Shown: positions 24,832 to 52,657, counted from the first letter of the stretch. The stretch: 57,271 nt of DNA from Lysobacterales bacterium (GCA_022844165.1 JALHMH010000030.1:1-57271); one strand, 5' to 3'. The notes: generated by a model from the letters alone, not told the origin. Program-made: numbers and translations.

Positions 24832-24832
24832 C

Positions 24833-26287: not shown

Positions 26288-26314
26288 CCGCTTTCTCGCG
26301 GAAGGATCACCGCC

Positions 26315-32300: not shown

Positions 32301-35300
32301 CCGCCAGTTTTGCGCTGGCGCCGATTGTTCAGCCGGAAGCTTTGCCACTGGCCAGCTTCTCGCCGGTGCGCTATGGACTCGATCACGAGATCCCGCTGCA
32401 AACGCCGATACAACTGGCCATTCCCGGCAGCGCCAACGCGCCCAACAGCGCGCCGAGCGCATGGCGCTTCCCCGAGTCCTTGCGCGCGCTGGCACTCGCG
32501 CGCAGCACCGAGCTTTTCGAGATCGAGCTTTCGCCGCCACGCGGCTCGGCCAGCGACGAAGCGACGATGGTCACTGCATCGACTTTCGGCGCGCTGGTCA
32601 ATTTCAAGATCCGCAGGACCGATGGACCCACCACTTACGAACTGATCGGCGCCAATGGCGATGATCGCCAAGTGCTTCTGGACATTTTCCAGTCGCTGGG
32701 CGTCGACGGCCCGGCCAACGCCTACCTGTTGCTCGCGCCCAGCGTGCAAGCAGGCGACCGCGGCGGTTTGGGCGTACTCAATCCCGCCACCGCGTTCCTG
32801 CTGCGGACGAACTTGTCGGTGGCATCGGTGCCGGAAACAGTCGATAGCGCCGGTCTTCGCGCGGAAGCCGCCGATCCTATCGTCGATGGCGCCACGCTGG
32901 CGCAAGCGGTGCGCTTTGCGCTGCTGCTATGGGAAGGCAGCACCGTCGGCGGCACCGGGTACTTCCTGCAGTTGATCGGCGCCGACGGCCAGGGACTGCC
33001 GGGCAGTGCTTTCGACCAGGACGGTACAACGCAGTTGTCGCTGCTGGTCATCGCCGCGTCGCAGCAACAGCCGGCGCCGGGCGGGCGCGGCTTGCTGCCG
33101 TTCAACAACTGTGCGCTGATCGCGAGCGCCATCGATGCCTCGGCCAGTCAACTCAGCGTGGTCGACAGCAACGATGCGCTCGGCCGCCACATCGCCAACG
33201 TGGCGCCCGGCCACATCGGCTATCGATTCACGCTGCCCAACGCCAGCGCGAGCGCCAACGATAGCGCCGGAGATCCGCCCAACGTCCTCGAACTTTTCAA
33301 CCTGAGTGCCTGGCGCCTCAACGGCACCACGTTCTCCACCAGTGAAGCAGCACCGCCGTTGCAGCCGCTGGAAAAACCCGTCAGCACATGGCGCACTGCG
33401 CGGCTACATTCGCGGCTGCGCGCTCTGGGCCAAAAGCCGGTGCTCGAAGAAGCGCCTGCCGGCCCGTGGTACTACGAACAGGTGCTGCCGATTTTCCGCT
33501 TCGCGCCCGCCTCGAAGGCCGCCGGCGGCCCCGGCCTGCCGCCGCCGGAGAATGATCCTTACCGCGGCATCGGCGGCGCCACCGCGCTGCCCAGCGCATC
33601 CTTCGCAATGAGCTTTGCCGATGTACAGGGCAACGCCACGCAAGAGAACACGCCTCCCGGTCTGGCCCAGGTAGCCGTCGGCTATACCGATGCGTTGCGC
33701 CCGCCGCTCAGTTGGCCGGCCACGCGCATCGGCTACTCGGTGGTTGGTACCACCAGCGCACCTGGAATCGACATCGACGTTCGCGCGCAAGCGGCCGCCG
33801 TGCAAGCCAGCCTGACGCAACCCGAATCGCAAACACTGGCAACTGCCAATACGCAGGTCGGCGACCTCGATGCGGTGCACTACCAGCTGGCCCAGCCGGC
33901 GCTCGAGGTTTATGCGCTTACCTCGCTCGCACCCTCCGTGCCCGACGGCATCGCGCTTGATGGCGCGGGGCTACAGTTCTGGCAGTACATCGCCGGGCTG
34001 CGCATGTACTCGGCCGCCGCCGCGGCGCTGCGCGCGGTGCGACCCGCCGCGCTCGCACCCATCACGCTCGTCGAGATCGCGAACCAGTACGGCGTCAGCC
34101 TCGGCGCCATGGCGACGGTCAATGGCGGACTCAACGCTTTCGCGCTGCTCGGCTCGGCACCGGTGCCAATGCCCGCGTACGTGGGTTGGGCGCAGGGCGA
34201 CAGCATCGTCACCTTGCTCTTGCGCGCACCCAAAGGCGTGAACCTGTTGAGCGCCGTCGACGCCCTCAGCGATCCGCGCAATGCCGCCACGCTGCCGCTG
34301 GCGCCCGGCGTGCTCCTCGCCATCGACCCACGCAGTGCAACTGTGCCGGTCATCGTGCCGACGGCAACGCTGTCAGATATCGCGAACATCAGTCGTACGA
34401 CCGTCCAGCAACTGCTCATCGACAATGGCGATAACGCGACATTGTTCGCCGACGGCGCGCAGATCGAGCTGACCGACGCCACGATTACCATCGGCGAAGT
34501 CGTCCAGATTCGCGGCGTCGACGTCAAGGTACAAACGCCGAACCAGGTGGTCGCCGCCTTTGCCACCTTGGGCGAACACTTGAGCGTAGCCGAGCTGGCG
34601 CAAGCGATTGCCGATCAGCACGATTTGCTGGTGGCCGGCGCCACCTATAGCAACGCACATTACGAGGTGCCATCGCCAAGCGCCGACGATCCCTTCGAGA
34701 CCCTGGCCAACAACGGCTCCGGCGAAACGCTGGCGCGTCTGGCCGCGTTGAACACCGGCACGGCGTTGTTCGACGCCGGCGCCATGGTCTATGTGGGTGC
34801 TTATTCGACCGCGCCGATCCTGAGCCCCGACAACGAAGCCACGCTCGATCAGTTCGCCGCGCAGTACGGCATCAGTTCGGCCCTGTTGCTGGCCGAACTG
34901 GCGCGCGCGGCGCGACCGCTACCGGCGCAGTCGATATTCGAAGTGCCCGGCTTGATGCGCCCCGTCGATGCCAACGCGCTACGCGTGCCGGCGCATGTCG
35001 ATTCCTCGCAAACGCTGACCGAAAACCTGCGGCGCTTCGCCGCCAGCAGCGCCGCGCAATTCGTCGCCGACAATCTGACGATGCCGGGCCAGTTGATCGC
35101 CGGCCAGACGATCAAAGTCGAGTTCCAGGGCACGCCGTACCAAACCCAAACGCAGGCCGACGACCGTCTGCTCGATGTATTGCAGCGCCTGCAGCAACAG
35201 CAGTCGCAGATTGGCAGCGCCGACCTCGGCAACGCCATTGCCGATCAGTCCGGCCTGCTGCAGCCGGCGTTGGCGCAGTGGCTGCCCGCCCTGATCGCCG

Positions 35301-37984: not shown

Positions 37985-38033
37985 GCGGTCACGTTGACGA
38001 CTTTGAGCCATAGACACCAAACACGGCTAGCGC

Positions 38034-39704
38034 ATGACACACGACGTTTTCATCAGCCACTCGAACCAGGACAAGCACATCGCGCTCGCAATCTGCGCAC
38101 GATTGGAGGCAGATCGGATCCGATGTTGGATTGCGCCACGCGATGTTCCGGTAGGAAAGTCCTGGCCGGCGGCGATTCTCGATGCAATCGATCAGTGTCG
38201 CGTGATGGTGCTGGTTCTGTCATCGGCATCCAACGCATCGAAAGACGTCGGGCGCGAAGTCCAGTCTGCCGCTCAGTCCGGAAAGATGATCGTTCCCTTT
38301 AAGATCGACGATGTCATTCCGAGAAAGGAACTCGACTACTTTTTGAAGGACGTCCATTGGCTGGACGCAGTCACTCCACCAATGGCAGCCCACATCGAAG
38401 TGTTGGCGGCGCAACTTAAGGCCGCTCTCGAAATTGCCGCGCGGCGGACTGCTGAAGAACCTGCGTTACCCACGACACCCTCTTTGCCTTCCAATAAGTC
38501 CGGAAGTGCGACCTCGAACTCGAAGTCGACGAAGTTTAAGCGCAGTCTAGCCATCGCTGCGACCATTACCGCATTGGCGATTGGTTGGATCTATTTCTTT
38601 CGCTACGTGGACAAGCCAACAGCCGACGGCAAAGTCGCGGCGAGCGATAAAGTCACTGACCCATCGAGCAGACGATTTAGGGACACAATGGACGATGGCA
38701 CTAAAGGCCCGGAAATGCTCGCGCTGACCGGTGGAACGCATACCTTTGGTTCGCCCCCAAGCTCGTCCCTTGCCCAGCCAAACGAGAAACCGCAGGTAAC
38801 CATCCAGCTAAAGCCGTTCGCTGTCGCAGTGACCGAGGTCACGCGCGATGAATTTGCAGCCTTCGTGCAAGACACCGGTTACGTGACGCACGCCGAACGT
38901 CCAGGCGCCAAAGGCTGCGGCGTCTACATCGAGACCGGCTCGGGAACCGAGAAGAAATGGGCCTGGGTTGAGAGCCCAGATCACGATTGGAAGCGCCCCG
39001 GGATTCAACAGGAAGGCGATCACCCGGTGGTTTGCGTAAACCATGACGACGCAATGGCGTACGTCAATTGGATGCGCAAACGCTCAGGCAAACAGTATCG
39101 GCTGCCCAGCGAGTTTGAGGCCGAGTACTACATGCGGAGTGGTCGCTTTGACACCGAATACCCTTGGGGAGACACGATTGATGGCGGATGCGGTCAGATC
39201 AACGGCCAGATCGGCGAATGCCATGAAACTGATCCTCCGGGCAACCACAGCATGTCCGTCTACCAGTTGGATCCGAACACGCTTGGGCTCAAGCACGCGC
39301 TTGGCAATGTGCATGAGTGGACGAGCACTACTTACACCACCGCACTAGGAGACCCGAAAACCGCAACTCCTGGGAGCTACGTCATTCGCGGTGGTAGTTT
39401 CTTCAACCTGGCGGACACCATGCGCGGCGCCGCTCGCTGGGGTTGGCCGCAAGGAGCAATGCACTCGTTTATTGGGTTTCGGCTGGCACGGGATTTAGCT
39501 TCAGATGAGATTGCTTTAGCGCGAACGCAGCGCTCGCCGGATTCTCGCCACACATCCGGCCTGTCCGATAGCAAGCCACTTGAAGCCGACTCAGGATCGG
39601 AAGGCAGGAGGGTGGAAGGGCGATCCGGATTTGACCGCGCTCAAGAACCCCTACTCGCTCTCAGGCCAACATCCCGTCGTATGCGTCTCATGGCAAGCTG
39701 CTGA
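38034..39704 (+). CDS. TIR domain - single TM - FGE-sulfatase (C-type-lectin fold) protein; 3' tail probably out of frame
   Basis: TIR: HDVFISHS, CWIAPRDVPVG, SKDVGREV, IVPFKID. TM LAIAATITALAIGWIYFF after KSTKFKR. FGE: EVTRDEFAAFV, HPVVCVN, YRLPSEFE, GNVHEW, VIRGGSF, IGFRLAR. Confidence 0.88.
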   Translation: MTHDVFISHSNQDKHIALAICARLEADRIRCWIAPRDVPVGKSWPAAILDAIDQCRVMVLVLSSASNASKDVGREVQSAAQSGKMIVPFKIDDVIPRKELDYFLKDVHWLDAVTPPMAAHIEVLAAQLKAALEIAARRTAEEPALPTTPSLPSNKSGSATSNSKSTKFKRSLAIAATITALAIGWIYFFRYVDKPTADGKVAASDKVTDPSSRRFRDTMDDGTKGPEMLALTGGTHTFGSPPSSSLAQPNEKPQVTIQLKPFAVAVTEVTRDEFAAFVQDTGYVTHAERPGAKGCGVYIETGSGTEKKWAWVESPDHDWKRPGIQQEGDHPVVCVNHDDAMAYVNWMRKRSGKQYRLPSEFEAEYYMRSGRFDTEYPWGDTIDGGCGQINGQIGECHETDPPGNHSMSVYQLDPNTLGLKHALGNVHEWTSTTYTTALGDPKTATPGSYVIRGGSFFNLADTMRGAARWGWPQGAMHSFIGFRLARDLASDEIALARTQRSPDSRHTSGLSDSKPLEADSGSEGRRVEGRSGFDRAQEPLLALRPTSRRMRLMASC

Positions 39705-40185
39705 CGCCTTCGCATCGTGGCTTTCAGCGGAAACAGGGCATCGATACCGACTGCCAACGGAGCAAGAGCAGGAATACTTCATTCGCGCCGGTCAAGAAGG
39801 AACAGTTTTCCCTTGGGGCGACTCGTTTGCACCTGAAGGATGCAAGTATGTGAACGGGCTAAGAACTGACGCAGTCAACGCTGGAACCCCGTGCACAAAT
39901 GACGCATATGGATATCAGTTGTTGGCCGTGGGAAGCCTTAGCGCAAACGCATTCGGGCTGCACGACACGCTCGGGAATGCAGCAGAGTTCTCCTTAAGCT
40001 GCATGCGATCTGCGCCCGGCGCCGTCGGCGATTGTGCGCACCGAGTTGTCAAAGGAGGAAGTGCTTACGATGGAGTTTCTAAGCTGCGCGCCTCTTGGAT
40101 ATGGAGCTGGACCCCAGAACACATCACTCCTTGGATCGGATTCAGAATTGTCCGCGAACTGGAAAATGCCGATCCAAACCAGTAA
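39520..40185 (+). pseudogene. Second, N-terminally truncated FGE-sulfatase domain in the +1 frame
   Basis: HPVVCVSW, YRLPTEQE, FPWG, NAFGLHDTLGNAAEF, KGGS, IGFRIVRE. Frame is open from 39520, the TTG at 39580 has no RBS, and the first ~70 aa of the domain are missing. Confidence 0.7.
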
Positions 40186-40230
40186 TCCGGCGACCGGCGG
40201 GAAGCACACTTTCGAACTCGATCTTAGTTC

Positions 40231-41934
40231 ATGACCACGACCACATCAGCCCCAAATAGTCGCCTTCCGCTAGTCGTTCATGTCGCTTTCGCTGGCAAGC
40301 GCCGATTGCTGCCTGCCATCACAGTTCCATCAGTCGACGAGGGCAAATTTCACGCCGAGCTTGAGGCTGAACTTACGGAACGACTGCGCTGCCTGCCGGA
40401 CGAGCTGGGCCTGATGCCTGGCGATCAGATTTGCGCTATGTCCTCTCTCGCCAGGGGAGGCGATCTTGTCTTCACACGCGCATGCAGGGCGCTGGGGTGG
40501 CGTCAGCGCATCCTGCTGCCGCAGGCCCGTGAAGATTTTTTGCGTGCCAGCGAGGAGTCGAGTAGTGAATTGGGGGACTTCACTGCGGCCGAAGCAAACG
40601 AAGTGCGTACGTTGCTCAAGGGCAAGATGGTTGTCGAAGGTCCGAGCGTAAATACCACGGCTTGCCCTTCCTCGAACAATCCAACGGGTACTCAACTCCA
40701 CCTCATCGAGGAACGCGTGGTCAGCACGTCGGGCGATCGGGATACGCGCTTCGAAGACGTAAACCTAGAGATGTTGCGCGCCTGCGATGTGTTGATCGGT
40801 CTGTTGCCCGCCGAACCCGGTGAGAGCAAGCCTGCCGGCACTGAGGCGACGATGGCGCTGGCACAGCGCCGTTCGATTCCAGTGCTGGAACTGCGCGTCG
40901 CCGTGTCCGCAATCGGTAACCCCATGCTCAGTGAGAAGTGGCAGGGGTTGAAAGACCCGGAAACGGCTCAACCGCCTAAGTTGACTCCCACACTGCCTGA
41001 ACCGCTCAACGCCATCGATTGCGTAACTTGCGGACTAAACGATACGAGAGGGTATCGGCGAACACTACTCGACTTTGCGGATAAGACCGCCAACCACCGC
41101 CAAACCGTATTTCGTTGGGCGGCGCTCGCCATCGTCGGGGCGCATGTGATGGCCACTGCGCTGGCATTGCTTGCGCTGAAGGCCGACACCAAGCCTCTGC
41201 TGATTTGGCTATTGAGCGCGGAACTCATGTTCCTGGCAGCTGGCTTGAGTTACCACTGGTGGCTGCACCACTCCCATGCGGTCAGGCATTGGGCGATGGC
41301 ACGTCTGAGCGCGCAGATCGCAAGCTCGGTGAGCGCGCTTGCGCAGGCGCGTTGCACACTTGAGTACCTCCTGGATTTGCCGATGCCGCTGAGCCTGCGC
41401 CCGCTGCTGCGCACACTCAACGTGCTGCATTTGCAGGATTTGCGGATGCCGCAGCAGCCTTGGCAAGATCGCAGAACCGCCTACGTGCAGTCGCGCTTGC
41501 GCAATCCCGATCAAGGGCAGCTTGCCTACTACCAAGCCAAGTTGAAGCAAGCCCGCCGCTGGCTCAGCCTTGCACGCTGGGGCTTTTACTTGAGTTCAAT
41601 CGGCGCGTTTACCGCGACCGGACTTAAGTTGTCGATGAAGTTCAGCACCTGGCACTTGGCGGCGACCTTCGATCCTGCCGTGTCGCTCGGTTTCTTGGCA
41701 GTGTTGCTGCCCGTGATCGCGGTTGCGGGACTGTCGCTGGCCGCAGCGTTCGATCTTGAAGCGCGCGAACACATTTACGATGAAACGCTCAAGTTCCTGG
41801 AACAACAAACACGGTTGCTGGACGCAGCCGTCAGCGAAAACGAGTTCTCCACACTGGCCGTGGAAACCGAGCGACGATTGCTTGGAGAAACTGCAAATTG
41901 GTACGCGAGGCGCGCGTTCACCGGCATCGCCTAA
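40231..41934 (+). CDS. SLOG-like nucleotide-binding domain fused to two SLATT-like 2TM units (paralogue 1)
   Basis: VAFAGKRRL, SSLARGGD, LRACDVLIGL, AGTEATMALA..IPV; four TMs; HWAMARLSAQ, QLAYY, ERRLLGETANW. Confidence 0.75.
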   Translation: MTTTTSAPNSRLPLVVHVAFAGKRRLLPAITVPSVDEGKFHAELEAELTERLRCLPDELGLMPGDQICAMSSLARGGDLVFTRACRALGWRQRILLPQAREDFLRASEESSSELGDFTAAEANEVRTLLKGKMVVEGPSVNTTACPSSNNPTGTQLHLIEERVVSTSGDRDTRFEDVNLEMLRACDVLIGLLPAEPGESKPAGTEATMALAQRRSIPVLELRVAVSAIGNPMLSEKWQGLKDPETAQPPKLTPTLPEPLNAIDCVTCGLNDTRGYRRTLLDFADKTANHRQTVFRWAALAIVGAHVMATALALLALKADTKPLLIWLLSAELMFLAAGLSYHWWLHHSHAVRHWAMARLSAQIASSVSALAQARCTLEYLLDLPMPLSLRPLLRTLNVLHLQDLRMPQQPWQDRRTAYVQSRLRNPDQGQLAYYQAKLKQARRWLSLARWGFYLSSIGAFTATGLKLSMKFSTWHLAATFDPAVSLGFLAVLLPVIAVAGLSLAAAFDLEAREHIYDETLKFLEQQTRLLDAAVSENEFSTLAVETERRLLGETANWYARRAFTGIA

Positions 41935-42033
41935 CCGGGTTTGCAACGCATCCAGTCCGTCGCGATTTCGCGATTTCGCGCCGTTCGCTCCCTATCGACT
42001 GACCGATTGTAAGACAATCGCACGCATTGGAAG

Positions 42034-45000
42034 ATGCCGAGAATCATGACGCCAGCGTTCGACATCTTCATCTGCTATCGCCAATCCCTTTCCGCTTGGC
42101 CGGCGGTGCTTTTGTACAACCGCTACTTCGAGGCCTTCGGCGATACGGTCTTCATCGACCATGAGTGCCTACGTGCTGGAAAACACTGGCGTGACGATAT
42201 CGATGCGGTGATTGCCGACACATCCGTGATGGTGGTTCTTTTGAGCCCCGGCTGGATCGACGTGATCGAAAGGAAACGCGCCAGCAACGAAGCCGACGAG
42301 GTCATTCGCGAAGTTTGCGTCGCTCTCAAGTTCGACAAGCCTCTGCTACCCGTTTATCTCGACGACTCAGCAAGCGCATCGGCGGCGCGCGACAAGTTTT
42401 CGGATGGAACGGACCAGCATCGCGCAATCCAAGCGCTCGCTGACGCACATAGCGTCAGGTGTCGCTCCTCAACGAGCGATATCGATCTCGGCACACTGAT
42501 CGAAGAGACAACGGCGTACTTGCCACGCTTTCCCAAACGGTTTGCGCATCGTTGTCGGGAGCGACTGGAGCGGCAGCTTTCTGGCCATCCCATCGCTGGC
42601 GCGTGGGACGAGAAGTTCGAGTCATTTTTGTCGGCCTTGCGCCGGCCGGAGCTTGACAAAGCGATCAGCGATGCGTCGTTCCTAGAGCACCGGCTGCTGG
42701 TTATCAAAGGCGAAGAGGGCATGGGAAAGACCTATGCCCTGGGTTGGGCGATGCGGATGTTTGGCGACGGACCCGTGTTGCTCGTTGAGGCGCGCGACGC
42801 CATTTGGACCGCAGGTTTTGTGGCGGGCGTGGAGGCGGTTTTGCTCGCTGGCGATGCTCAAGCATCGTGCGCGTCCGGGCAACGATGTCTGGCCAGCACG
42901 GCGGAACTGAATCTCGCGATGGCGCAGCCATTGCTGATCGCCATCGACGGTCTCAATGAATATCCAACTCGGGACTGGTGTGAGCTTCTCAACGAAGGTC
43001 TCGCATCGATTGCGAGTGGTCGTCCGTGGAGGATCGTCGTCAGTGTTCGGACCGATGCCTGGGCTGATCGATTTGAGCGCCGACTGCGCCGACAACATGG
43101 GTCGTTGGAAGTACCCAAACTCACGCTCGGCGAATGCAAATTGCTCGCTGAGCGACTGAGCTTTCGATGGGAAGACGTTGACTCCGAGGTGCGCGAACAA
43201 CTTCGCAGGCCGCGAATGCTCATGGCGGTCGCGGGAATACCGCCGGACCGATTGACCGGCTTTGAGTTGAGCTATCCGCTGGTCATGCTGCTGCATCTTC
43301 AGCAGTCGGGCGACGACGCGATGCTGAACTTCGACACCATCTGCGACACGCTCCGCGAAATCGGTCGCGTCACGAATCAGAAGCTGGCCTTGACGCGAGA
43401 CGTGCTGCGCGAGCAACTGAGCGGCTTGTCCGAATCGAACTTCGAACTCGGTCTTGAGCAGCTATGCGATTTTGGCGTGTTGCATCGCCGCAATGGCAAG
43501 CTACGAGCGCATCCGAAAGCGACTTGCGTTGCACTTGGGCTCTATCTGCTCGGCGAATTGAACTCCCAAGAAAAGCCGGACTTCGTCGCGCTGCGTGAGC
43601 ATATCGCTCGTTTCATCTGCGACAGCGACCACGAATCCGTTTCGGAGGTGTTGAGTCACGCAATTGTTGCGCGACTCCTGCCGCGGATCGACGGCTCGCC
43701 AACTCCGTTGGATGAGTACGATCCGATGCTGGCGGCACTTTTTGTTGAATGGGATCGCCGCTTCAATCGCGACTACGCGCCAGCGCGACTCGCGCGCTGG
43801 CTGCTGCCCGAGTTTCTCTGGCTCTCTGAGAACAAGTTGCTTTCCGACCGCCTGGACTGGCTTCAAAGCGCCATCGACGGCGGCCCGCGAAGCGAGTGGG
43901 CTCCCGTGTTTGCGAAGCGGCTCGACCGTTGGTTCAGCGGCGTCAACTTGGAAAACGACGGACACACAGGCCCAGGACCGGCGGACGAAGCAGAAATCGC
44001 GAAACGTCATGACCAGTTTCAGCAAGCCAGGGCACTGGGCAACCTTATAGAGGTGGGAGAGCAAGAGTCCCGTTTACGTCGCCTTGGGCTCGAACTTGCG
44101 GCCCGCTGTTCTATCGATCCGCGGTCGGTGAACCTACTAGCGCTGGTTCTCTCCGTGACGGTGCAGCCAGCGGGCGGCTGGGATGAACTGGGGAAATGGG
44201 TGCGCACATACCGAGTTGATTGGTGGCCGATTTTGGAACCGATATGGCAACGGGTCCACAGCGCACAAATCGACAATGAACTCAGAGCGGATGTCGCGAA
44301 GTTGTTGTTCTTGTTGTGGCCCACGGATGGTTGCCGGCAGCTCGTTCAACCTCCGGATCCGCAGCATCATCGACCAAAGTTTGCGGAACCCATCGACTAC
44401 ACTCGCCTCGTCGACGCAATGCAATTGCCGGACGGCGACGCTGAGATGCGCCTCCGCCGCAAGCTGGACAGCAATGGGTTGTATGCGCGGGACCCGGAGC
44501 TGGCTGCGGCTGCACTTTGGCTGCCAACGCGTCTGCAGCAGTATTGCGCCGAGCTTGTCGATCGCGTCAGCGACAGCAGCAAATCTATCGATTTCTTTGG
44601 AACGAAGCTGGCGGCGCAGGCACCGCTACTGACTCCCGAACAAACGCGCCGATTGCGAAAACTCGTGCGCGAACGTACCGACATCGAACGCGCACAAAGT
44701 GGGCACTTGGGTTTTGCGGGATGGTTCAATCTGCCAGATGCCCGCCGGGCTAGCGCTGTGTTGTCGCAAATGCGCGAAAACAACCTCGCAAAGGATGCGC
44801 TGCGGGGCGCGTGGCTTTCAGTGAGAACAGCCGCCGCCGTAACTCGGCGTCTCTCGTCGAAGCGCTGGCAATCTGTTCAAGGGCGAATCGCGCAATGGCT
44901 ATTGGGAGTGTTCGACGCGACCAACGAATTCGCGATTCGCGATGCGCTAGTGCAGGTGCTGCCGCTGCTTCACGCGAGTGAGTTCTCGGATTCTGCTGAG

Positions 45001-46059
45001 TACTGGCTACTGCTGCTTTGCCTGGCGTTCGAACTTGAATCGGACGCGACCCATTTGATTCCGAGTGGGTGGCGGTACGTATCGGACGAGCAGTCGCACA
45101 ACAAGATCGACCTCGCGAGAAGTGCGATTCTGGCGGAGTCCGGCTCGCTGGCGCCCGATGAAATTCGGCAACTCTGTCATCGCGATCATTGGCATCTGGT
45201 CGCCGAGCCGGAACGCACGCAGTTCCTGGCTGAGCGCATTTCGATCAATCGAGCAAAGTTCTTTTCGCGAACGTCGATGCCGATGGACGACACACATCGG
45301 ATACGGGAAATCGTCGACAGCGATCCGGACTTCGTCGCTGAGGTGATAGCCGACCCCGGGCCACTGCGTGTCAATCGAGCCGAAGATGTCGCGGCTGCGA
45401 TTAAGCCAGGTTCATCGCCGCATTGGCTCGACCTAGTCACCCTGGTGTGTGCCCAGCCCTCGCTGATTCGCACGACCGTCAATGGAATAGGCCAAAAGTT
45501 CATTGTTGCATTCAAGGCAGCCGATTCTGAGCAAATGCGGCGATCTTGGGATGGCCTGCTCGACGGCGTTGAGCATGATGCAGACTTACTTCAGCTGGTG
45601 ATCGCTGCGAAACGAGGGCATCGTGCGCAATGGCTGGCCGACCGAGCGCAGATCGCAACTTCGGCGATTCCACACCGGCAACTGCGCGCCGCAACCATCG
45701 CCGCGATGATCGGCTCGGAGCGAGCGCCGATGGACATCGAACGCGCGAAAGTCGGCAACGACGGGTGGATTGCTAAAGGCTTTGAGAACGCGCTGGCCAT
45801 GTATCAGACCGACCAGTTGGCCCAAGCTTGGTATCGCCGTTTCAGAGCGTCAACCAATTGGTTCGAGGCTGTGGGTAGCTGGAGCATGCACTGCCAGTTA
45901 CTCGACTTGCGCCACCTCCTTTGGGACCGAGACTCGCTTCCACAGTTCGCGCTCGCAGAAAGCGCACGCTTCGAATACGCTCGGCGAAACGACATCAATC
46001 ACGCTTGCGAGAATCGAGCCAAGGAGCTTCGGAAAACACGGTTTGGGATCGTGATCTGA
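42034..46059 (+). CDS. TIR - STAND/NACHT-like NTPase with long helical C-terminal region (Avs/bNACHT-like)
   Basis: TIR: IFICYR, VFID, LRAGKHW, VVLLSPGW, VIREVCVAL. Walker A GEEGMGKT, Walker B LIAIDGLNE, sensor-1 IVVSVR, LRRPRML; about 800 aa helical tail. Confidence 0.85.
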   Translation: MPRIMTPAFDIFICYRQSLSAWPAVLLYNRYFEAFGDTVFIDHECLRAGKHWRDDIDAVIADTSVMVVLLSPGWIDVIERKRASNEADEVIREVCVALKFDKPLLPVYLDDSASASAARDKFSDGTDQHRAIQALADAHSVRCRSSTSDIDLGTLIEETTAYLPRFPKRFAHRCRERLERQLSGHPIAGAWDEKFESFLSALRRPELDKAISDASFLEHRLLVIKGEEGMGKTYALGWAMRMFGDGPVLLVEARDAIWTAGFVAGVEAVLLAGDAQASCASGQRCLASTAELNLAMAQPLLIAIDGLNEYPTRDWCELLNEGLASIASGRPWRIVVSVRTDAWADRFERRLRRQHGSLEVPKLTLGECKLLAERLSFRWEDVDSEVREQLRRPRMLMAVAGIPPDRLTGFELSYPLVMLLHLQQSGDDAMLNFDTICDTLREIGRVTNQKLALTRDVLREQLSGLSESNFELGLEQLCDFGVLHRRNGKLRAHPKATCVALGLYLLGELNSQEKPDFVALREHIARFICDSDHESVSEVLSHAIVARLLPRIDGSPTPLDEYDPMLAALFVEWDRRFNRDYAPARLARWLLPEFLWLSENKLLSDRLDWLQSAIDGGPRSEWAPVFAKRLDRWFSGVNLENDGHTGPGPADEAEIAKRHDQFQQARALGNLIEVGEQESRLRRLGLELAARCSIDPRSVNLLALVLSVTVQPAGGWDELGKWVRTYRVDWWPILEPIWQRVHSAQIDNELRADVAKLLFLLWPTDGCRQLVQPPDPQHHRPKFAEPIDYTRLVDAMQLPDGDAEMRLRRKLDSNGLYARDPELAAAALWLPTRLQQYCAELVDRVSDSSKSIDFFGTKLAAQAPLLTPEQTRRLRKLVRERTDIERAQSGHLGFAGWFNLPDARRASAVLSQMRENNLAKDALRGAWLSVRTAAAVTRRLSSKRWQSVQGRIAQWLLGVFDATNEFAIRDALVQVLPLLHASEFSDSAEYWLLLLCLAFELESDATHLIPSGWRYVSDEQSHNKIDLARSAILAESGSLAPDEIRQLCHRDHWHLVAEPERTQFLAERISINRAKFFSRTSMPMDDTHRIREIVDSDPDFVAEVIADPGPLRVNRAEDVAAAIKPGSSPHWLDLVTLVCAQPSLIRTTVNGIGQKFIVAFKAADSEQMRRSWDGLLDGVEHDADLLQLVIAAKRGHRAQWLADRAQIATSAIPHRQLRAATIAAMIGSERAPMDIERAKVGNDGWIAKGFENALAMYQTDQLAQAWYRRFRASTNWFEAVGSWSMHCQLLDLRHLLWDRDSLPQFALAESARFEYARRNDINHACENRAKELRKTRFGIVI

Positions 46060-46121
46060 AAGCAGTCGGGACGAGAATCCTATGGCTAGTTACACAGGCG
46101 AGTTGGACTGAGGCGCAAAGA

Positions 46122-46140
46122 CGTTCGGCAAAGCCGAATG
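46122..46140. terminator. Hairpin between convergent genes
   Basis: TTCGGC-AAA-GCCGAA; no strong U tract. Confidence 0.3.
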
Positions 46141-46142
46141 CG

Positions 46143-47741
46143 CTACTTCGTGGCCGGCGCTGGATTGCGGCCTTTCGTCAGCGCGTCGAAATCGTAGTAG
46201 AACAACAAGCCAGTTCGGACTTCTGAACGTCCTTTACGGTCCTGCGGTGCATCGACATAAAGTCTCGCGGCCAACTTGAAGGCACCTATGCCGAGTCCTG
46301 GAAAGCGCAACTGACCGTCAATCACCCAACGATCATCGTCCGACGATGCGAAGGGCAAAGCGCGGTCGCGATCGCGCGGAATGTCGTCCCAAAAGTTGTC
46401 GTGCGCGGCGCCGATAAAGAACTGTCCCTGTGCGCCGTCCAGAAAAGGCGTTTGCGTGTGCAGCCCGAGAAACATCCTTGAGTCCGCATTCAACTCGCTC
46501 TCGCTGCCATCCGACGCAGCGGTCATACCGACACCGAATTGCATGCCCATGGTCTCGTTCCAGTGCATCTGCATACCGGTGTTGACGCGAAACACGCCAT
46601 CAATCTCGCCCAATGGATCGCCTGGGGATGTCGTGTTGCGCCCTGGCAATCCGCTATCGGAGACATACGACACTTCGGCGAATGTGCGGCACCAGGCAAA
46701 AAACTTTGCGCAGTTGCGGCGCTCTCGAATCGGCGTCTGATCATCCATCAAGTTGGAAACAAAACGTGTAAACGGAAACCCACGGAACGCATCGGACTCG
46801 GTCCGAAACAGAAACTCGCCGCCGGATTTCCATCCATTGTCGGCGCGCAGCGAATACGAGGGCCCGCTGAAGATCGCATAGTTGCGTAGGTTGGAGTAGG
46901 TCAGCCCCTGCGCTCTGGCGAAAAGCCGATCGACCTGCGAGCGCCTTGCGACGATCTGTTTGGTGCGCGCATCGCCAGCATCCAAAGCCACCAGTTTGGT
47001 CTCGGCGTCGACGAACTGCCGGTAGTACATGGCTGCTTGATCGATACCGAACTCCACGCACCGCGAAAACGACAGCTCGCGCTCGGTGCAAGCGGGTGGC
47101 TGCTGCCCAAGATCGAGGTAGGACGCAGCAGCGTCCAGTACCGCGCCCAAGCTGCTCGCCGACACCGAGGCCAACTTGAACGAATCAGCAATGAGCGCTT
47201 CTTTCTCTGCTGCCGCATCTGCTTTGACGGCGTCGGCAACTTTTGCGATTTCGCGCTCGGTTCTTGTCGCCTCCAAGACCCTGCCGGCAAGCACTGATTG
47301 CCGGACCAGCAACTGCTCCGTTCCCTCGATCGTTTCGATCGCAGCACCGGCGCCCTTCCTCGCTCCGTCACCAGCAGGCGGCGCTGACGTGGCTGGCCGC
47401 GCAGCTTCGGCGACACAAAGTGCGTCCAAGGCTTCGTACATCTCAACCACGAAGGCGTCGGCGTTCAATCTGCCCGCGCGCGTGGCGCGGCTCAGGGCCT
47501 GCGGCAATAAATACTCAATCAAGACGGTATCGTAGGCCGCCGGCCATTGACGATCCGCCAGTAACGCAACCACACGATCGAACTGTGGCGTTGCACCGCT
47601 GGACACTCGCCAGCGTACGGCATCCTCTGCGGCGGCGCTGAGATGCACTGCCTTTCCGTCTTTCCCGCAAGGTTCGGCTGCGGCTGTGGACGCCCAGAGC
47701 ACACCAACGGATGCCAGTATCCACCCTTTGCGAAGCAACAT
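46143..47741 (-). CDS. Exported protein: helical N-terminal half plus putative C-terminal outer-membrane beta-barrel
   Basis: Signal peptide ending TAAA-EP; about ten alternating strands (GGEFLFRTE, TFAEVSYVS, FRVNTGMQMHW, MQFGVGMT, MFLGLHTQ, WVIDGQLRF, LAARLYVD, VRTGLLFYYDF). Confidence 0.7.
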   Translation of the reverse strand: MLLRKGWILASVGVLWASTAAAEPCGKDGKAVHLSAAAEDAVRWRVSSGATPQFDRVVALLADRQWPAAYDTVLIEYLLPQALSRATRAGRLNADAFVVEMYEALDALCVAEAARPATSAPPAGDGARKGAGAAIETIEGTEQLLVRQSVLAGRVLEATRTEREIAKVADAVKADAAAEKEALIADSFKLASVSASSLGAVLDAAASYLDLGQQPPACTERELSFSRCVEFGIDQAAMYYRQFVDAETKLVALDAGDARTKQIVARRSQVDRLFARAQGLTYSNLRNYAIFSGPSYSLRADNGWKSGGEFLFRTESDAFRGFPFTRFVSNLMDDQTPIRERRNCAKFFAWCRTFAEVSYVSDSGLPGRNTTSPGDPLGEIDGVFRVNTGMQMHWNETMGMQFGVGMTAASDGSESELNADSRMFLGLHTQTPFLDGAQGQFFIGAAHDNFWDDIPRDRDRALPFASSDDDRWVIDGQLRFPGLGIGAFKLAARLYVDAPQDRKGRSEVRTGLLFYYDFDALTKGRNPAPATK

Positions 47742-47930
47742 CGCCGTTTCCCCATCCTGGTTGTTACCTCTCCAGGATTGGCGGACGGGGAAAATGTCTC
47801 ACCTCGGGCGACGATGATCAACGAACGTTCGCCGCCTGCTTGCGGCTGGCCCGGACTTTTGAAGACAGCTCATTGATCGGATCGATTTGGCGCGTCACCA
47901 CGCACAGCACCATGCGCATCGGCACTCAAG

Positions 47931-50006
47931 TCACGTCTCCCGCAACCCCTGGCTATACATCGTCGCCCACTCGCCCACTTCCTCCGCCATCAGTCGATAG
48001 GTGCGTTCGCTTAAGTTGAGTACGGCGTGGCTGGCGCTGATGCCGAAGGTGGGCGCGTGGGTTTGCAATTGCCTGGCTTCGACGAGCAGAAGGGACAGGG
48101 CGCCGGCCATGGCGCCGTGGCGGTCGGCGAGCTGTTCGGCTTGGGATTGGAATAGGATGCCGTTGAGCGTGGCCATCAGCGCTGGCAGCAGCGCCGTGAT
48201 GAACACCAATGCGACGCCGACGATCGATAGCACTTTGCCGATGGGTACGATCCAGGCTTCGGCGACGAGGCAAGTCGCAAGCTGCGAATTCAGTATGAGT
48301 TTGGCAATGATCACGACGATGTCGATACCGACAATCCAGATCACTAACCCGCCGCAGGTGGCGATGCCGCGTTCGAGCATGCGGTGGACGGCGCTCATCT
48401 TGGCGTGGGTGCTGGCGTGATGCGCGATTTGATCGTTGATCAACTGAATCAGCCCAACGATCGCCAACCGGCTATCGCCTCGCCGCGCGGCGCTATTGCC
48501 GGGAGCCATGGCGTCGGCGCGGCCGATCGGCAGGCTGTCCTCCAGCGGCAAACGCCGCACGAAGTCCTCGGTGACGTGGTGCGCCGGACCCTGTCGCGAT
48601 GTTTGGTGTACCAGATCGACGCGCGCACTGCCGATGCCAATCAGATTCGGCATGACACGCAACCGCTCGGCGATGTAGCGCAGCTCGACCGACAGTTTCC
48701 CGGCCTTGGTCTCTTCGGCACGCTGCGTGTTGTCGCTGATCTTCCACACGATTCCGAACTTCGCCACCGCGAGCGAGAACAAAGCGACAAGCGACCATGG
48801 CCCAGGTTTGCCCATCGCCAAAATCGACAGTGAAACCAACGCAAGAACCACAGCAAGCAAGCCCAGCCAGTAGTTGCTGATGAAGAGACTGCGGTATTCG
48901 GCCATGCGACCCGTCTGCGAGGTGCCTACTTGACGGCGCCAGTGAGCGACCGTCAGCACTTCCTCTTTGATTTCCGGAAGCGTTGGGCCCGCGAAGAAAA
49001 GGCCAGCAACGCCGAGCGTCAATGCGCTCAACGATTGCCAGGGCGATGGCTCAGATAACTTCAGTTGCGCTGGTTTCTTCTCGCTGCTGCTGGTATTCGT
49101 TTCGCTCGCGGGAATCAGCACCGCAAGCAGCTCGGCCTCGTAGGTTTGAGCGTAAACTCTGAACGGCCGCTCAAACGCGTCCCATCGTGTCGACTGCTTT
49201 TGCCCAGGCTGCGGATCGCAGGCGCTTCGAAGCGAGTGCTTCGCATCGGATATCAAGGATGGCGCAGAAAGCGCGGACTTCAGAACCGCTCGCCACACAT
49301 CCCGCCAGTCGTCGCTCGGCACGTAGTCCGCACGCAACTCTTCGATATAGCGCAACACGAACACGTCTTGACTGGCTGGATCGATCACCAACACCGGCGT
49401 GTCCAAACTCATCCCGCGCTGAATGGTCTCTCGCGTGCCGCCTGCCTCGCCCTCTTGCTCGCGATCGATCACGGCAACGAGGAACTCGCACTGGCGAATC
49501 AGTACCTCGGACTGATAGCAATGTGCGGCGGCGCGGATGCGCTTTTCGCGCTTCATTTGCTCGTCGTTGATCGCCTTGCCGGCTGCAGGGTCGGGTCGAC
49601 TGCGCGGCATCTCGCCATCGAGCACGAGTTCGAACGTGTTGGGTTTGGCGATGACGGCGGTGCGACGTGCATCGAACCCCGCGATCTCCGTCTCTTCACT
49701 GCGCAGCTTGAAGTCGTTCACCGCACAGGGATAGATCAGCAGCAACTCATGCGGCTGCGCCGAGTGGCTGTCGCGCCAGTCGCAATAGCTCGTTACCGCC
49801 AGGCTGTCCGCGCCATTCGCCATGCCACTGGCCAGACGCGATAACTCGACCGACTCGGGCGCGGACCAAGTCGCGCTCGTTGCCCAGACCTCCGTCAGCC
49901 GCTCAACCAGCCAAGCCGTCTCTTCCGGCAAGCTGCGCGCACCCACGAACCCCATGCGCACTCGCGGCGGCGATGACACGATGCTCGGAAAACTGCGCTC
50001 TGACAT
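47931..50006 (-). CDS. SLOG-like domain fused to two SLATT-like 2TM units (paralogue 2)
   Basis: RMGFVGARSL, ASGMANGAD, LIRQCEFLVAVID, AGGTRETIQR..PVLVID; four TMs; LRYIAERLR, DQIAHH, RLMAEEVGEW. Confidence 0.75.
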   Translation of the reverse strand: MSERSFPSIVSSPPRVRMGFVGARSLPEETAWLVERLTEVWATSATWSAPESVELSRLASGMANGADSLAVTSYCDWRDSHSAQPHELLLIYPCAVNDFKLRSEETEIAGFDARRTAVIAKPNTFELVLDGEMPRSRPDPAAGKAINDEQMKREKRIRAAAHCYQSEVLIRQCEFLVAVIDREQEGEAGGTRETIQRGMSLDTPVLVIDPASQDVFVLRYIEELRADYVPSDDWRDVWRAVLKSALSAPSLISDAKHSLRSACDPQPGQKQSTRWDAFERPFRVYAQTYEAELLAVLIPASETNTSSSEKKPAQLKLSEPSPWQSLSALTLGVAGLFFAGPTLPEIKEEVLTVAHWRRQVGTSQTGRMAEYRSLFISNYWLGLLAVVLALVSLSILAMGKPGPWSLVALFSLAVAKFGIVWKISDNTQRAEETKAGKLSVELRYIAERLRVMPNLIGIGSARVDLVHQTSRQGPAHHVTEDFVRRLPLEDSLPIGRADAMAPGNSAARRGDSRLAIVGLIQLINDQIAHHASTHAKMSAVHRMLERGIATCGGLVIWIVGIDIVVIIAKLILNSQLATCLVAEAWIVPIGKVLSIVGVALVFITALLPALMATLNGILFQSQAEQLADRHGAMAGALSLLLVEARQLQTHAPTFGISASHAVLNLSERTYRLMAEEVGEWATMYSQGLRET

Positions 50007-50455
50007 ACACGCCCCCCAATCGATGGTCGCTCGATTCGAATCTGCCGCGCACGCCTCACGAGGTCAATGGGCGGTCAGATTTTGCGAGATTTCGTTGCGG
50101 TGGAACCTGCGCACTTCGCTACCTGATTGAGGTAGCTTTCCCAAAATCGATCGCGGCACATGTGAAAACAAGAAATATAGGATGGCGATGACTCAATTCC
50201 TGGAACGCTACTTAGGACGACGCTCGCTCGCCGCGCGAGGATGGTGAGACCTTACGCGCCGAGACGACTCCTTCGGGGGAATGGCGCACGCATCCAATTG
50301 GCGACCGCAGAATGCGATTCGCGGATTCTAGATGCGAAGCACCTACGTCGAGGGTCCGCTTTTGGTTGCCGATAGCATCGTCGGGCCAGTCACTGCAGCG
50401 TCGATAGCGGAGTCTGTCCGTTTCAGGTTCGATTAGATTGAGAATTGAGGAGCAC

Positions 50456-51664
50456 ATGAGCGCGACAAAAAAAAACCAACTTCTGTTCTTTTCGCGATCC
50501 TTCGACCAGACAGATGCTGTTGTAAACGACTTCTTCGCCGCGATCGCTGCGGGACTCGAAATAAATCTAAGCGATATCGGATACGGTTCGCCACAAGCAC
50601 CAATCGAAAAGTGCCGTGACCTAATCGCCAGTGCTGGCGGTGTTTTCGTAGTTGCGGTCCGGCGAACCCCACTAAAAAACGGCCGGTTCGCAATGCCGGA
50701 CGCATGCCGTGACGAAATTGGGATGGCCTACGGCCTCAGAAAACCAATAGTAATATTTTGCGAGGATGGCGTAGAGGTGGAGGGTTTTGCAAAACACTAC
50801 GGGACACGTCAGACATTCTCACGGATTGATCTCCATAAACCGAATCATATTAGAGATACGATCCGAGCGATCAGAGAACTATATTTGAAAGTAATTGGCG
50901 ACTTTCCCATTCAAACGGATATGATGAGAGCGGATATATACTCTGAAGGAACAAAACTGCTTGCAGATCTTCGCCGTGATTCCAAGGGCTGGTTTTGGGA
51001 ACTCATTGTGAAAAAGAGACTGATATTCAATGAAGACTTGAATCAGCCGCTGACGGATGGAACCTGGGCATCTTCTGCAATTGCGGTACCGGAAAGTGCA
51101 CCACGCATTCTCTTCTCGATAAATCCCTTAGAATCGAGTCGAAAATTTAAGCTCACACCCAGCCTCAGGCGTCACACGGCATTATTGGTCGACTGCGTTA
51201 CAAGCGTTTCTCCCAAGCCCAAGAAAGGTGACTGGCTAGAGTATGAAGCCAAGTCTCAGTCGCGGTACCTTAATCCACTCGTTATGGAGGACCTTTTATC
51301 CCGTGACTCTCCGTACGTTATAGGCGGAAAGCAATATTTTTGCTTAGAAGGCTTAGTGCCAGTTCAACTTACAGAAAAATTGGAGATTGAATTGAGATTT
51401 GAAAGAGGATATCCAATTCACAAATCAAGCCCTTGCATGGTATCGGGACCCCATTCAAACTCGCTTGACCGATTGGATACGGAGGAGACTGCCCGAATGG
51501 TCTGTACCGAGCGCGATACGATCGGGGGCGAGACTAGAGTTAGAACGCTCGTTCATAAGCCCCGACAAAATTACCTCTATGGAATAGCTTGGAATCCCTT
51601 GCCAACGGACAGCCTCGATAAAGCACATGCCTCTGGAACGGGGAATGCGGAGGCACGTTCCTGA
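50456..51664 (+). CDS. TIR-like domain plus C-terminal beta-sandwich domain(s); low-GC gene
   Basis: LFFSRSF, IEKCRDLIASAGGVFVVA, CRDEIGMAYGLRKPIVIFCE; C-terminal strand pattern ending TEKLEIELRF...KPRQNYLYGIAW; RBS GAGGAG; visibly AT-richer than neighbours. Confidence 0.75.
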   Translation: MSATKKNQLLFFSRSFDQTDAVVNDFFAAIAAGLEINLSDIGYGSPQAPIEKCRDLIASAGGVFVVAVRRTPLKNGRFAMPDACRDEIGMAYGLRKPIVIFCEDGVEVEGFAKHYGTRQTFSRIDLHKPNHIRDTIRAIRELYLKVIGDFPIQTDMMRADIYSEGTKLLADLRRDSKGWFWELIVKKRLIFNEDLNQPLTDGTWASSAIAVPESAPRILFSINPLESSRKFKLTPSLRRHTALLVDCVTSVSPKPKKGDWLEYEAKSQSRYLNPLVMEDLLSRDSPYVIGGKQYFCLEGLVPVQLTEKLEIELRFERGYPIHKSSPCMVSGPHSNSLDRLDTEETARMVCTERDTIGGETRVRTLVHKPRQNYLYGIAWNPLPTDSLDKAHASGTGNAEARS

Positions 51665-51874
51665 CCTCATCCGTAAGCAGGCATCTAGCACCTATTGATC
51701 GTATTGACTTGTGTTTTTCAAAATTGGCACTCATTGGTGTTTGCGGTGGACATTTGGCGCCGAGCTCCTGGAGATCGCTTCTTTCTCTCGGGCTCTACTC
51801 GGCCGATGGCGGTGAGGGAGTCGACGCCAAATTTGGCGCGCCTCGCTGCCCAAAAGCCCCTGTCGCGTCAACCG

Positions 51875-52438
51875 CTACAACTGCCAGAGCAACGCCAACT
51901 CCAACGGCGCATCAGCAAACGGCTTGATGGCTGCAACATCGTCGCCGCCGTGGGTTGCCAGCAGCAGCCATTGGCCGGACGGCGAGCGCTCGTAGGCTTC
52001 GAGCGTCTGCGGGTCGGGGTCGATGAGCCACAAATGATCGACACCAGCAAGGGCGTAGGTGCTCATTTTGATGCGTCGATCGAAACGCGCGGTGCTCGGC
52101 GACAGCACTTCGCAAATCCAGTTTGGAACGATGTCGATATAGGCGTCTTTGGTCGGTACGACCGGCATCCGTTCGCGCCGCCAGCCGGCGAGATCGGGTA
52201 CGACGACGGCGCCGGCGATGTGTAGCTCGGGTTCATTCATCAGTACCCATCCGCCGGGCCCACCGCGGCCAAACCGAAATGGCATGCTCAACTGCCCGGA
52301 CAAACCCATGGACGTGACGGCGTGCCTGGGCGCAGGCCGTGGGCTGGTATGCAAAACACCTTGCACCAACTCGGCCACCAGGTGTTCCGGTGCGTTCAGC
52401 ACATCCTCGTAGGTCGCCAGTTTGCGCGCGGCGGTCAT
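51875..52438 (-). CDS. Uma2/DUF820-family PD-(D/E)xK-like protein
   Basis: ATYEDV, AELVQG, PAPRH, VVPDLAGWR, WICEVLSPST..DR..K..YA..GV.HLWLIDP. Confidence 0.9.
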   Translation of the reverse strand: MTAARKLATYEDVLNAPEHLVAELVQGVLHTSPRPAPRHAVTSMGLSGQLSMPFRFGRGGPGGWVLMNEPELHIAGAVVVPDLAGWRRERMPVVPTKDAYIDIVPNWICEVLSPSTARFDRRIKMSTYALAGVDHLWLIDPDPQTLEAYERSPSGQWLLLATHGGDDVAAIKPFADAPLELALLWQL

Positions 52439-52657
52439 GGCAATCATCCGACAATCAATGCGCGCCAATGTAGCGCGAGCGGTCCAGGGGCGCAACGCCA
52501 GCGTGGCTGCAACGATCGAGAGGTTCATTGGCGGCCTATCTGTGCGCGACTGGCCGCTCGATGCAGCTTCGCACTACGCGGCGCTGCGGGCGTCGGGTGC
52601 GCTTAGGCGTTTGACGAAACGGGCTCCCAGGTCTTTGCGACAGAACCCAACGCCGTC

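Follow-up and report, generated by a model that had tools for sequence, protein, structure and literature searches.

TIR genes beside candidate SLOG–SLATT membrane effectors in a putative Thoeris-like defence island of a Lysobacterales bacterium

Four described systems stand close to the locus discussed here and, according to the available portions of two bioRxiv preprints (10.64898/2025.12.03.692087; 10.1101/2024.12.27.630466), they differ in how a TIR protein is joined to its effector. Type I Thoeris couples a TIR protein to a SLOG sensor carried on a SIR2 enzyme, and type III combines several TIR proteins with a SLOG effector that answers an unknown signal; type VII, in which a TIR protein acts with the SLATT effector ThsH through canonical cyclic ADP-ribose (cADPR), and Shaseng, made up of two TIR proteins and a SLATT protein, are both experimentally anti-phage. 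The locus lies in a 57,271-nucleotide stretch of DNA from a Lysobacterales bacterium (GCA_022844165.1, JALHMH010000030.1:1-57271), referred to below as the window, where genes for large TIR proteins (A and C) stand among genes for two proteins (B and E) that each appear to join a YpsA-type SLOG domain to a four-helix, SLATT-type membrane region. We consider it rather probable that these genes encode a Thoeris-like pathway, in which a messenger derived from ADP-ribose (ADPR) and made by the TIR domains would be bound by the SLOG domain of B or E, whose SLATT-type region would then breach the membrane. That the SLOG–SLATT genes are functionally linked to TIR proteins is, as far as domain and neighbourhood comparisons go, well supported. 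The idea that a TIR-made signal is read by a SLOG-bearing membrane effector had been put forward in an earlier reading of the same DNA (the original prediction), and it fits the SLOG fold, the invariant GxD motif and the repeated adjacency of TIR genes in unrelated genomes described below; its further element, a third TIR sensor in the product of gene F, is not supported.

Burroughs et al. reportedly predicted by computation, in 2015, conflict systems based on nucleotide signalling by SLOG, SLATT and TIR proteins, and the association of SLOG with SLATT is said to go back to that work. In the available portions of later papers from the same group, the 2015 prediction is cited for SLATT as a pore regulated by ADPR derivatives (PMC9503650; PMC7159879). 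The association is thus old, as is also clear from the Pfam name for SLATT, ‘SMODS and SLOG-associating 2TM effector domain’.

The genes of the locus are as follows:

38034-39704, + strand: gene A, 556 amino acids; TIR domain, one membrane helix and an FGE-sulfatase (C-type-lectin-like) domain, in a receptor-like layout
39580-40185, + strand: reading frame A', a truncated FGE domain, out of frame with A
40231-41934, + strand: gene B, 567 amino acids; YpsA-like SLOG domain and four-helix membrane region with a SLATT_1-like second half; predicted effector
42034-46059, + strand: gene C, 1341 amino acids; SARM1-like TIR domain, STAND-like P-loop NTPase and a C-terminal region of ~900 amino acids
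46143-47741, - strand: gene D, 532 amino acids; signal-like N-terminus
47931-50006, - strand: gene E, second SLOG and four-helix membrane protein; likely start Met18 at 49955, giving 674 amino acids; predicted effector
50456-51664 (alternative start 50438), + strand: gene F, 402 amino acids; rare; flavodoxin-like N-terminal domain and beta-rich C-terminal part

The order and strands of the main genes are as originally described, with A, B and C consecutive and co-oriented (gaps of 45 and 99 nucleotides) and E and F divergent; A' and gene D had been overlooked. D and E are both on the minus strand, D lying downstream of E after a gap of 190 nucleotides. Housekeeping genes begin at 52.6 kb with lpxK, an msbA-like ABC transporter and a Mur ligase. 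GC content is 0.52-0.59 in windows inside the island and 0.62-0.67 in both flanks, and the B family is missing from all 400 other sampled genomes of the window's phylum, which together argue for horizontal acquisition. The region from 38.0 to 52.5 kb is best explained as a horizontally acquired defence island with Thoeris-like signalling modules, and its assembly is non-random.

Of the two candidate effectors, B can be described in the greater structural detail. A sequence search gave 75 full-length homologs including B itself, and an AlphaFold2 model built from a 51-sequence alignment has a pLDDT (predicted local distance difference test) of 90.4 and a pTM (predicted template modelling score) of 0.89. 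In this model the N-terminal domain has a YpsA-type SLOG fold: YpsA is the top match found by Foldseek, and VIA-align of residues 14-255 places YpsA first (Z 15.7 over 162 residues, root-mean-square deviation 2.9), followed by DprA (Z 12.7), ShosA (11.4), Moco carrier protein (10.5) and LOG (9.9), with the SLOG domain of BcThsA bound to 3'cADPR at Z 7.7-8.3. The original prediction had staked itself on the N-terminal domains of B and E being SLOG folds, and for B the YpsA-like fold of a confident model bears it out. The source, available in part (PMC6459960), names GxD/E as the signature motif by which the YpsA clade is predicted to bind its substrate. This motif is invariant in both families, as G76-x-D78 in 51/51 rows for the B family (G76-G-D78 in B itself) and as G48-A-D50, counted from Met18, in 48/48 rows for the E family, where G172/G173 are also invariant. 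The parts of B are placed as follows:

40270-40995, + strand: SLOG domain of B, residues 14-255, with the invariant G76-x-D78 motif and the G203/T204 loop
41122-41253, + strand: first membrane hairpin of B, residues 298-341; hydropathy segments 298-316 and 323-341, model helices 272-317 and 321-347
41482-41901, + strand: SLATT_1-like module of B, residues 418-557, including the second membrane hairpin

The SLATT assignment of B draws on the NCBIfam SLATT_1 model (E 9e-6) and on its family, where 28 of 51 members match SLATT_1 at E up to 0.01 (best 7.7e-10) and six match SLATT_3. An internal SLATT duplication was considered but is not supported, as the two membrane halves of B compared by hhalign have no detectable similarity (E 0.22), so that ‘2x SLATT’ describes a topology of two hairpins and not a demonstrated repeat. 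A complex prediction with three copies of the B membrane region scored 0.00 against a mark of 0.42, a result which carries no weight either way.

The E family is larger, with 341 representative homologs (50% identity) at E up to 0.001. A profile built from 48 sequences of this family aligns to that of the B family with an hhalign probability of 98.9% (E 2e-17, 497 columns), and the alignment takes in the GFAGxR, GxD and GGT loops and continues through the membrane region; by this comparison B and E are homologous from end to end. Four clear membrane helices are found in E at residues 364-382, 388-406, 537-555 and 575-593, so that both proteins have two membrane hairpins, and the four helices are retained in the aligned members of both families. 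Neither protein has a SIR2 domain by Pfam or PADLOC. As the matches of the E family to SLATT models are sub-threshold or none, and no curated SLOG model matches, the SLOG and SLATT assignments of E lean on its homology to B. The earlier description of both as SLOG proteins with two SLATT modules is thus supported as to SLOG, by model for B and by homology for E, and as to SLATT for the B family, with E sub-threshold; the doubling of SLATT is not supported.

The TIR proteins beside these effectors are large. The parts of A and C recognised by profile or hydropathy are:

38046-38372, + strand: TIR domain of A, residues 5-113; Glu75 at 38256-38258
38544-38600, + strand: predicted membrane helix of A, residues 171-189; Kyte-Doolittle mean 1.86 over 19 residues
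38706-39491, + strand: FGE-sulfatase domain of A, residues 225-486; Pfam E 6e-46, 157.6 bits, profile complete (positions 2-255 of 255)
42064-42372, + strand: TIR domain of C, residues 11-113; Glu93 at 42310-42312

Protein A matches Pfam TIR_2 over residues 5-113 with E 6.8e-22 and 78.7 bits (curated cut-off 28), and Glu75, within the string GREV at residues 73-76, aligns with the glutamate of WDEL in the solved Cat1 TIR domain (9mud). The flank of the membrane helix on the TIR side, KSTKFKRS, is the more basic one, so the TIR domain is probably cytoplasmic and the FGE domain outside the cytoplasm. The TIR domain of C is also recognised by TIR_2, with 31.6 bits over residues 11-113 (cut-off 28), and its best solved match is the SARM1 TIR domain (E 4e-6). 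Counted along that alignment, Glu93 in the string IREV (residues 91-94) falls on SARM1 position 642, which we take to be the catalytic glutamate; the aligned glutamates of both A and C are presumably catalytic. C further contains a Walker A motif, GEEGMGKT, at residues 226-233 and matches NACHT weakly (E 0.023; 15 bits, cut-off 26.7), while its ~900 C-terminal residues match no family. Of the labels TIR-FGE and TIR-STAND given in the original prediction, the FGE part is confirmed by profile, and STAND is a tentative label for C, drawn from the Walker A motif and the weak NACHT match. The PADLOC ThsB models match the TIR proteins of the window at E 0.006-0.009 at best.

The reading frame A', which overlaps the end of A by 125 nucleotides in the +1 frame, matches Pfam FGE-sulfatase with E 7.5e-33 at profile positions 84-255 only. 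The partial profile and the stop codons upstream in the same frame mark it as a truncated remnant or fragment; it looks like the result of an internal deletion in a former TIR-TM-FGE-FGE gene (TM, transmembrane helix) or a separately translated fragment. A short FGE fragment similar to A' also follows a B homolog in another genome (L016, 2154-2513). A diversity-generating retroelement acting on the FGE domains was considered and rejected, there being no template and variable repeat pair in 37900-52600.

The surroundings of B homologs were scanned in 14 loci from species-representative genomes, all of them metagenome-assembled genomes (MAGs) of Verrucomicrobiota, Planctomycetota and Gemmatimonadota, the search having used 14 closer rows. 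Up to three reading frames on each side were taken (60 in all), selected frames and N-terminal parts were rescanned at a relaxed threshold, and tblastn was run with the window proteins. TIR_2, an A-type TIR or DUF4062, which is described as a TIR-like NADase in the available portions of two 2026 preprints, was found within three reading frames in 6/14 loci (L013, L017, L018, L019, L021 and L025), and one further locus, L016, gave a weak sign:

L013: stand-alone TIR directly downstream of the B homolog
L017 and L025: A-type TIRs interrupted by contig ends, with 42% and 38% identity to A
L021: SIR2-TIR and nSTAND1
L018: two DUF4062-AAA proteins
L019: DUF4062-TPR and a deoxyribosyltransferase-like STING protein
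L016: a STAND-FGE protein matching DUF4062 below threshold (17.2 bits; threshold 24.7); nSTAND1 and FGE

An A-type TIR of 38-49% identity thus recurs beside B homologs in three other genomes. The closest case is L013, where the TIR is 49% identical to the TIR of A (E 3e-52) and the adjoining B homolog 53% identical to B, and since both partners are close to those of the window, the TIR-plus-B pair travels together. A and B are the best-supported of the likely cognate pairs in the island, and a compact one of ~3.9 kb.

Two arrangements seen in these loci deserve mention in their own right. At L019:2331-3425, directly after the B homolog, a gene encodes a deoxyribosyltransferase-like N-terminus and a prokaryotic STING domain, and the DUF4062-TPR gene comes next. 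The trio of a SLOG–SLATT gene, a SIR2-TIR gene and a separate nSTAND1 gene occurs at L021:8864-12966 (B family, a Gemmatimonas MAG) and again at L044:1573-7718 (E family, an unrelated genome), which suggests a recurrent three-gene arrangement.

Matches to the E family are present in 12/401 sampled genomes of the window's phylum, a count that includes the window's own genome and one unpublished genome left out of the analysis. Ten loci were fetched and nine scanned, with 54 reading frames, and a TIR neighbour was found in 4/9. By neighbour, the loci are:

L042 (genome G233), 10029-11792: TIR-TM-FGE
L044 (genome G159): SIR2-TIR and nSTAND1
L046 (genome G311), 11845-14007: TIR-TM-TPR
L049 (genome G140), 10263-12242: TIR-TM-TPR
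L043 and L048: patatin (patatin-like phospholipase) and a large RyR-domain protein, TrkA_N-RyR in L043
L047: RyR-domain protein only
L045 and L051: nothing recognisable

In L042, L046 and L049 the TIR partner joins its TIR domain through a single membrane helix to an FGE or TPR domain on the outside, which is the Toll-like-receptor-style layout also found in A. Whole-genome counts of TIR_2 matches are 1 in G140, 4 in G311, 8 in G233, 13 in G159 and 5 in G359, and the sole match in the 3.0 Mb of G140 is the neighbour of its E homolog; in G359 the nearest match is ~9 kb from the E-family gene. By a rough estimate, chance would put a TIR gene within 5 kb in ~0.3-3.5% of cases per genome, a figure that is a guide only, as related genomes are not independent. 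A metagenome scan for E-family loci yielded two short contigs only. E itself is proposed to be a paralogous effector that in other genomes is usually accompanied by TIR-TM-TPR, TIR-TM-FGE, or SIR2-TIR with STAND; patatin and RyR-domain proteins may form an alternative partner set for effectors of this family.

The genome of the window contains five TIR_2 matches, two of them on contig C49, and the combination of TIR and SLOG–SLATT genes is found in it a second time, at the end of contig C49 and the start of contig C19 (L010:8881-17227 and L011:1-1092). This second locus encodes a TIR-NB-ARC-TPR protein (1006 amino acids), a TIR-nSTAND1-WD40 protein (1326 amino acids) and, immediately after them, a B paralog, 32-36% identical to B, that spans C49 into C19 through an exact contig overlap of 119 nucleotides; a 251-amino-acid gene and a Uma2 gene come after the paralog. 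The fifth TIR gene of the genome, at L012:5552-6496 on contig C20, encodes a protein of 314 amino acids (TIR_2 105 bits) with ThsB_TIR and PADLOC ThsB-type matches; its neighbours are a 268-amino-acid gene and one with a PIN domain, and it may represent a small Thoeris-like system of its own.

From these parts a course of events can be proposed. A would sit in the membrane as a receptor, its TIR domain in the cytoplasm and its FGE, lectin-like domain outside, and C would be a cytoplasmic NLR-like TIR-NTPase, each detecting infection through its own sensor part; C is proposed as a second, variable sensor. Their TIR domains would convert NAD+ into a second messenger derived from ADP-ribose, the YpsA-type SLOG domains of B and E would bind it, and binding would drive the four-helix SLATT-type region to breach the inner membrane, so that growth stops or the cell dies before phage release. 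A wider form of the same idea, which we regard as tentative and on present evidence doubtful, is that Toll-like-receptor-like proteins (A and its TPR and FGE relatives) and TIR-NLR-like proteins (C and the TIR-STAND proteins of the second locus) are generators of a signal for a separate SLOG-gated pore, not drainers of NAD+, with several receptors feeding into shared effectors. If true, prokaryotes would have a parallel to the plant pathway that leads from a TIR-NLR, by way of a small molecule, to a helper-NLR channel.

Several results weigh against the proposed pathway. No Pfam or NCBIfam SLOG-type model matches B or E, with no Pfam match at E up to 10 on their N-terminal parts. With Pfam SLATT_1, B reaches 22.2 bits, below the cut-off of 26.3, and in its second half only, and it has no PADLOC match at all; E has only sub-threshold SLATT-type matches (NCBIfam SLATT_4 at 27.7 bits against a cut-off of 55, and a weak PADLOC 2TM match), and 0/48 members of its family match any Pfam SLATT model. 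PADLOC and NCBIfam models give no full-system match for the locus, which is also what the original prediction expected of a new system. The broken FGE frame after A could mean a decaying locus, and tblastn finds no relatives of C, D or F in any fetched locus. A clear TIR neighbour is missing from 8/14 B-family loci (the weak sign in L016 and nothing in the other seven) and from 5/9 E-family loci, three of which carry patatin and/or RyR-domain proteins. Several of the contigs concerned are very short (L014 and L026 of the B family are below 3 kb), and L015, also of the B family, carries an IS200 transposase. Finally, it is usual to regard TIR-STAND proteins as depleting NAD+ by themselves, and for that reason the systematic Thoeris survey, in the portion available, set aside TIRs in Avs/STAND proteins.

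These points bear on whether the genes of the island belong together. A and C could be self-contained, Avs-like or SARM1-like depleters of NAD+, and B and E could answer another ligand or trigger, their adjacency being due to the clustering of defence genes in islands. The treatment of TIR-STAND proteins as NADase effectors in the literature, at least in the portions available, would suit such independence, as would the many TIR-less loci, the patatin and RyR-domain genes that adjoin some E-family genes instead, and the absence of any relative of C beside another SLOG–SLATT gene among the fetched loci. We nevertheless think it unlikely: an A-type TIR recurs beside B homologs in three other genomes, the single TIR gene of G140 adjoins the E homolog, the arrangement is repeated at a second locus of this genome, and a YpsA-type SLOG domain whose GxD pocket is intact calls for a ligand of nucleotide type. 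A different division of labour would have the SLOG domains work as LOG-like N-glycosidases, by which the product of the TIR domains is made, trimmed or destroyed, with the membrane part as an anchor only and B and E as regulators or terminators of the signal; in our view this is very improbable. LOG-type enzymes do occur among the structural matches (Z ~9-10), and SLOG clades range from enzymes to non-catalytic sensors in the available portions of an Aravind group review (PMC9503650). Against this, the best matches are YpsA, DprA and ShosA rather than LOG enzymes, SLATT modules are known, from the sources available in part, as membrane-disrupting effectors, and the fusion is conserved in the 75 sequence matches (including B) and the 341 representatives, with the four membrane helices kept in the aligned members.

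The purpose of the pathway, as distinct from its wiring, might be envelope surveillance, or conflict between cells and suicide, with the outside FGE domain triggered by cell-wall damage or by molecules of competitors. Proteins that combine a TIR domain, a single membrane helix and a sensor on the outside are found repeatedly (A, L042, L046 and L049), D is predicted to be secreted, and the available portions of PMC7159879 describe FGE/FGS domains as binding ligands in the conflict systems of multicellular bacteria. The neighbours of the locus are, however, defence-like (an MBL domain like that of LmuA, and Uma2 as PDC-S03), and the characterised bacterial TIR-to-effector systems are all anti-phage in the portions of the literature consulted, which makes a role other than defence against phage very improbable.

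C, D and F are placed with the pathway by position, given that they have no relatives in the fetched loci. D is predicted, from its signal-like N-terminus, to be secreted. It has no family in Pfam, PADLOC or NCBIfam, and its leads in the protein atlas are unnamed clusters, DUF3570 and outer-membrane-like clusters only; no relative of it was found in any fetched locus, nor is it similar to the 526-amino-acid gene that comes after the TIR-FGE gene in L042.

F had been counted as the third of three TIR proteins that retain the catalytic-position glutamate (GREV in A, IREV in C, RDEI in F). All three strings are present and the count holds for A (Glu75) and C (Glu93), but none of the TIR models in Pfam, PADLOC or NCBIfam recognises F, and its N-terminal part has no match to Pfam TIR_2 even with E values of up to 10 allowed. 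RDEI lies at residues 85-88, and Glu87 (50714-50716) is invariant among F and its homologs, which number only two others in a collection of 5.8 billion clusters, with 0/400 in the other genomes of the window's phylum. A weak match to Pfam Nuc_deoxyrib_tr over residues 80-114 (E 0.005, 17.4 bits against a cut-off of 28.8) includes Glu87. A model of F from a three-sequence alignment, of low confidence (pLDDT 52.6), has a flavodoxin-like N-terminal domain that matches the CMP N-glycosidase MilB (Z 12.1), DNPH1 (10.9), deoxyribosyltransferases (10.7), TIR domains (10.2-10.5) and receiver domains (~10.5). The atlas leads are unnamed clusters and then TIR_2 and DUF4062 at 0.86-0.87, and comparison of a profile with solved chains brought no useful match. 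The Nuc_deoxyrib_tr match over Glu87, the structural matches and the atlas leads together would tentatively place F in the TIR/deoxyribohydrolase class, leaning toward the hydrolase side; it may be a further hydrolase-type effector, or unrelated.

At its right-hand side the island ends with the following gene:

51875-52528, - strand: Uma2-family putative endonuclease at the island edge; Pfam Uma2 E 4e-22, PADLOC candidate PDC-S03 E 4e-16

A Uma2 gene lies beyond the SLOG–SLATT genes at both loci of this genome, in the window at 51875-52528 (- strand) and in the second locus at L011:2292-2867 (- strand), which could be a shared island edge or a coincidence. On the other side, four large, tightly packed, co-oriented genes at 18180-37984 (+ strand) end 49 nucleotides before gene A. 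Their products are a protein of 1016 amino acids with fn3, one of 1170 amino acids without a family, one of 484 amino acids and a giant of 3889 amino acids with weak LysM-type matches only, and the metallo-beta-lactamase N-terminus of the 484-amino-acid protein resembles PADLOC LmuA, RTasMBL and PDC-M48B (E 5e-12 to 2e-8). These genes may form a further conflict system and could share a transcript with A to C. A scan for promoters and terminators was uninformative (no promoter-like sites, and 16 terminator-like sites against 15.2 expected), and the whole window contains no Rfam family and no tRNA gene.

If the proposed pathway is right, it adds to TIR signalling an effector class in which a YpsA-type SLOG sensor is fused to a SLATT-type pore, and it suggests that large TIR receptors, whether they are STAND proteins or span the membrane once and expose an FGE or TPR domain outside, can produce a signal and not only deplete NAD+. 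Both effector families are sizeable (75 sequence matches including B, and 341 representatives at 50% identity), and a defined TIR partner could reveal the ligand of YpsA-clade SLOG domains.

Considering how this locus compares with the described systems, the likeness to type I Thoeris lies in a TIR gene beside an effector whose SLOG domain, in type I, reads a TIR-made cyclic ADPR isomer, and the SLOG domain of B superposes on that of BcThsA (Z 8.3). The output of B and E would, in contrast, be a four-helix membrane region in place of SIR2, their SLOG domain is closer to YpsA and DprA than to ThsA, and the TIR proteins are large receptors compared with the small ThsB. With type VII Thoeris and Shaseng the island shares a TIR gene adjacent to a predicted SLATT-type membrane protein. 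In the available descriptions, the SLATT proteins of those systems are without SLOG or Macro, and the presumed binding site of the signal lies between their protomers, whereas B and E have an N-terminal SLOG domain and two hairpins. Type III Thoeris, like the island, has several TIR genes around a SLOG-containing effector; C scores 18.4 bits against the NCBIfam ThcB4 cut-off of 220, and B and E match no type III model. For F, a comparison can be made with ThsI of type VIII Thoeris. That effector is annotated, in the available portion of the preprint, with a CMP-hydrolase-type domain, and ThsI and SLATT effectors are said there rarely to share operons. The N-terminal domain of F likewise fits the CMP N-glycosidase MilB best (Z 12.1), in a model of pLDDT 52.6 with TIR domains within 2 Z units and with ThsI compared by its description only.

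The view in the original prediction that no experimental description of this combination existed is outdated for TIR with SLATT (type VII, Shaseng) and for several TIRs with SLOG (type III). We found no published experiment on a fused SLOG–SLATT effector, or on TIR-TM-FGE or TIR-STAND proteins as its partners, and the 29 predicted effector types of the survey may already include the architecture. The published record thus covers TIR-to-SLATT signalling (type VII and Shaseng) as well as TIR-to-SLOG signalling (types I and III), and what looks new in the present island is the fusion of the two modules, SLOG and SLATT, in a single effector, together with large TIR receptors as its partners.

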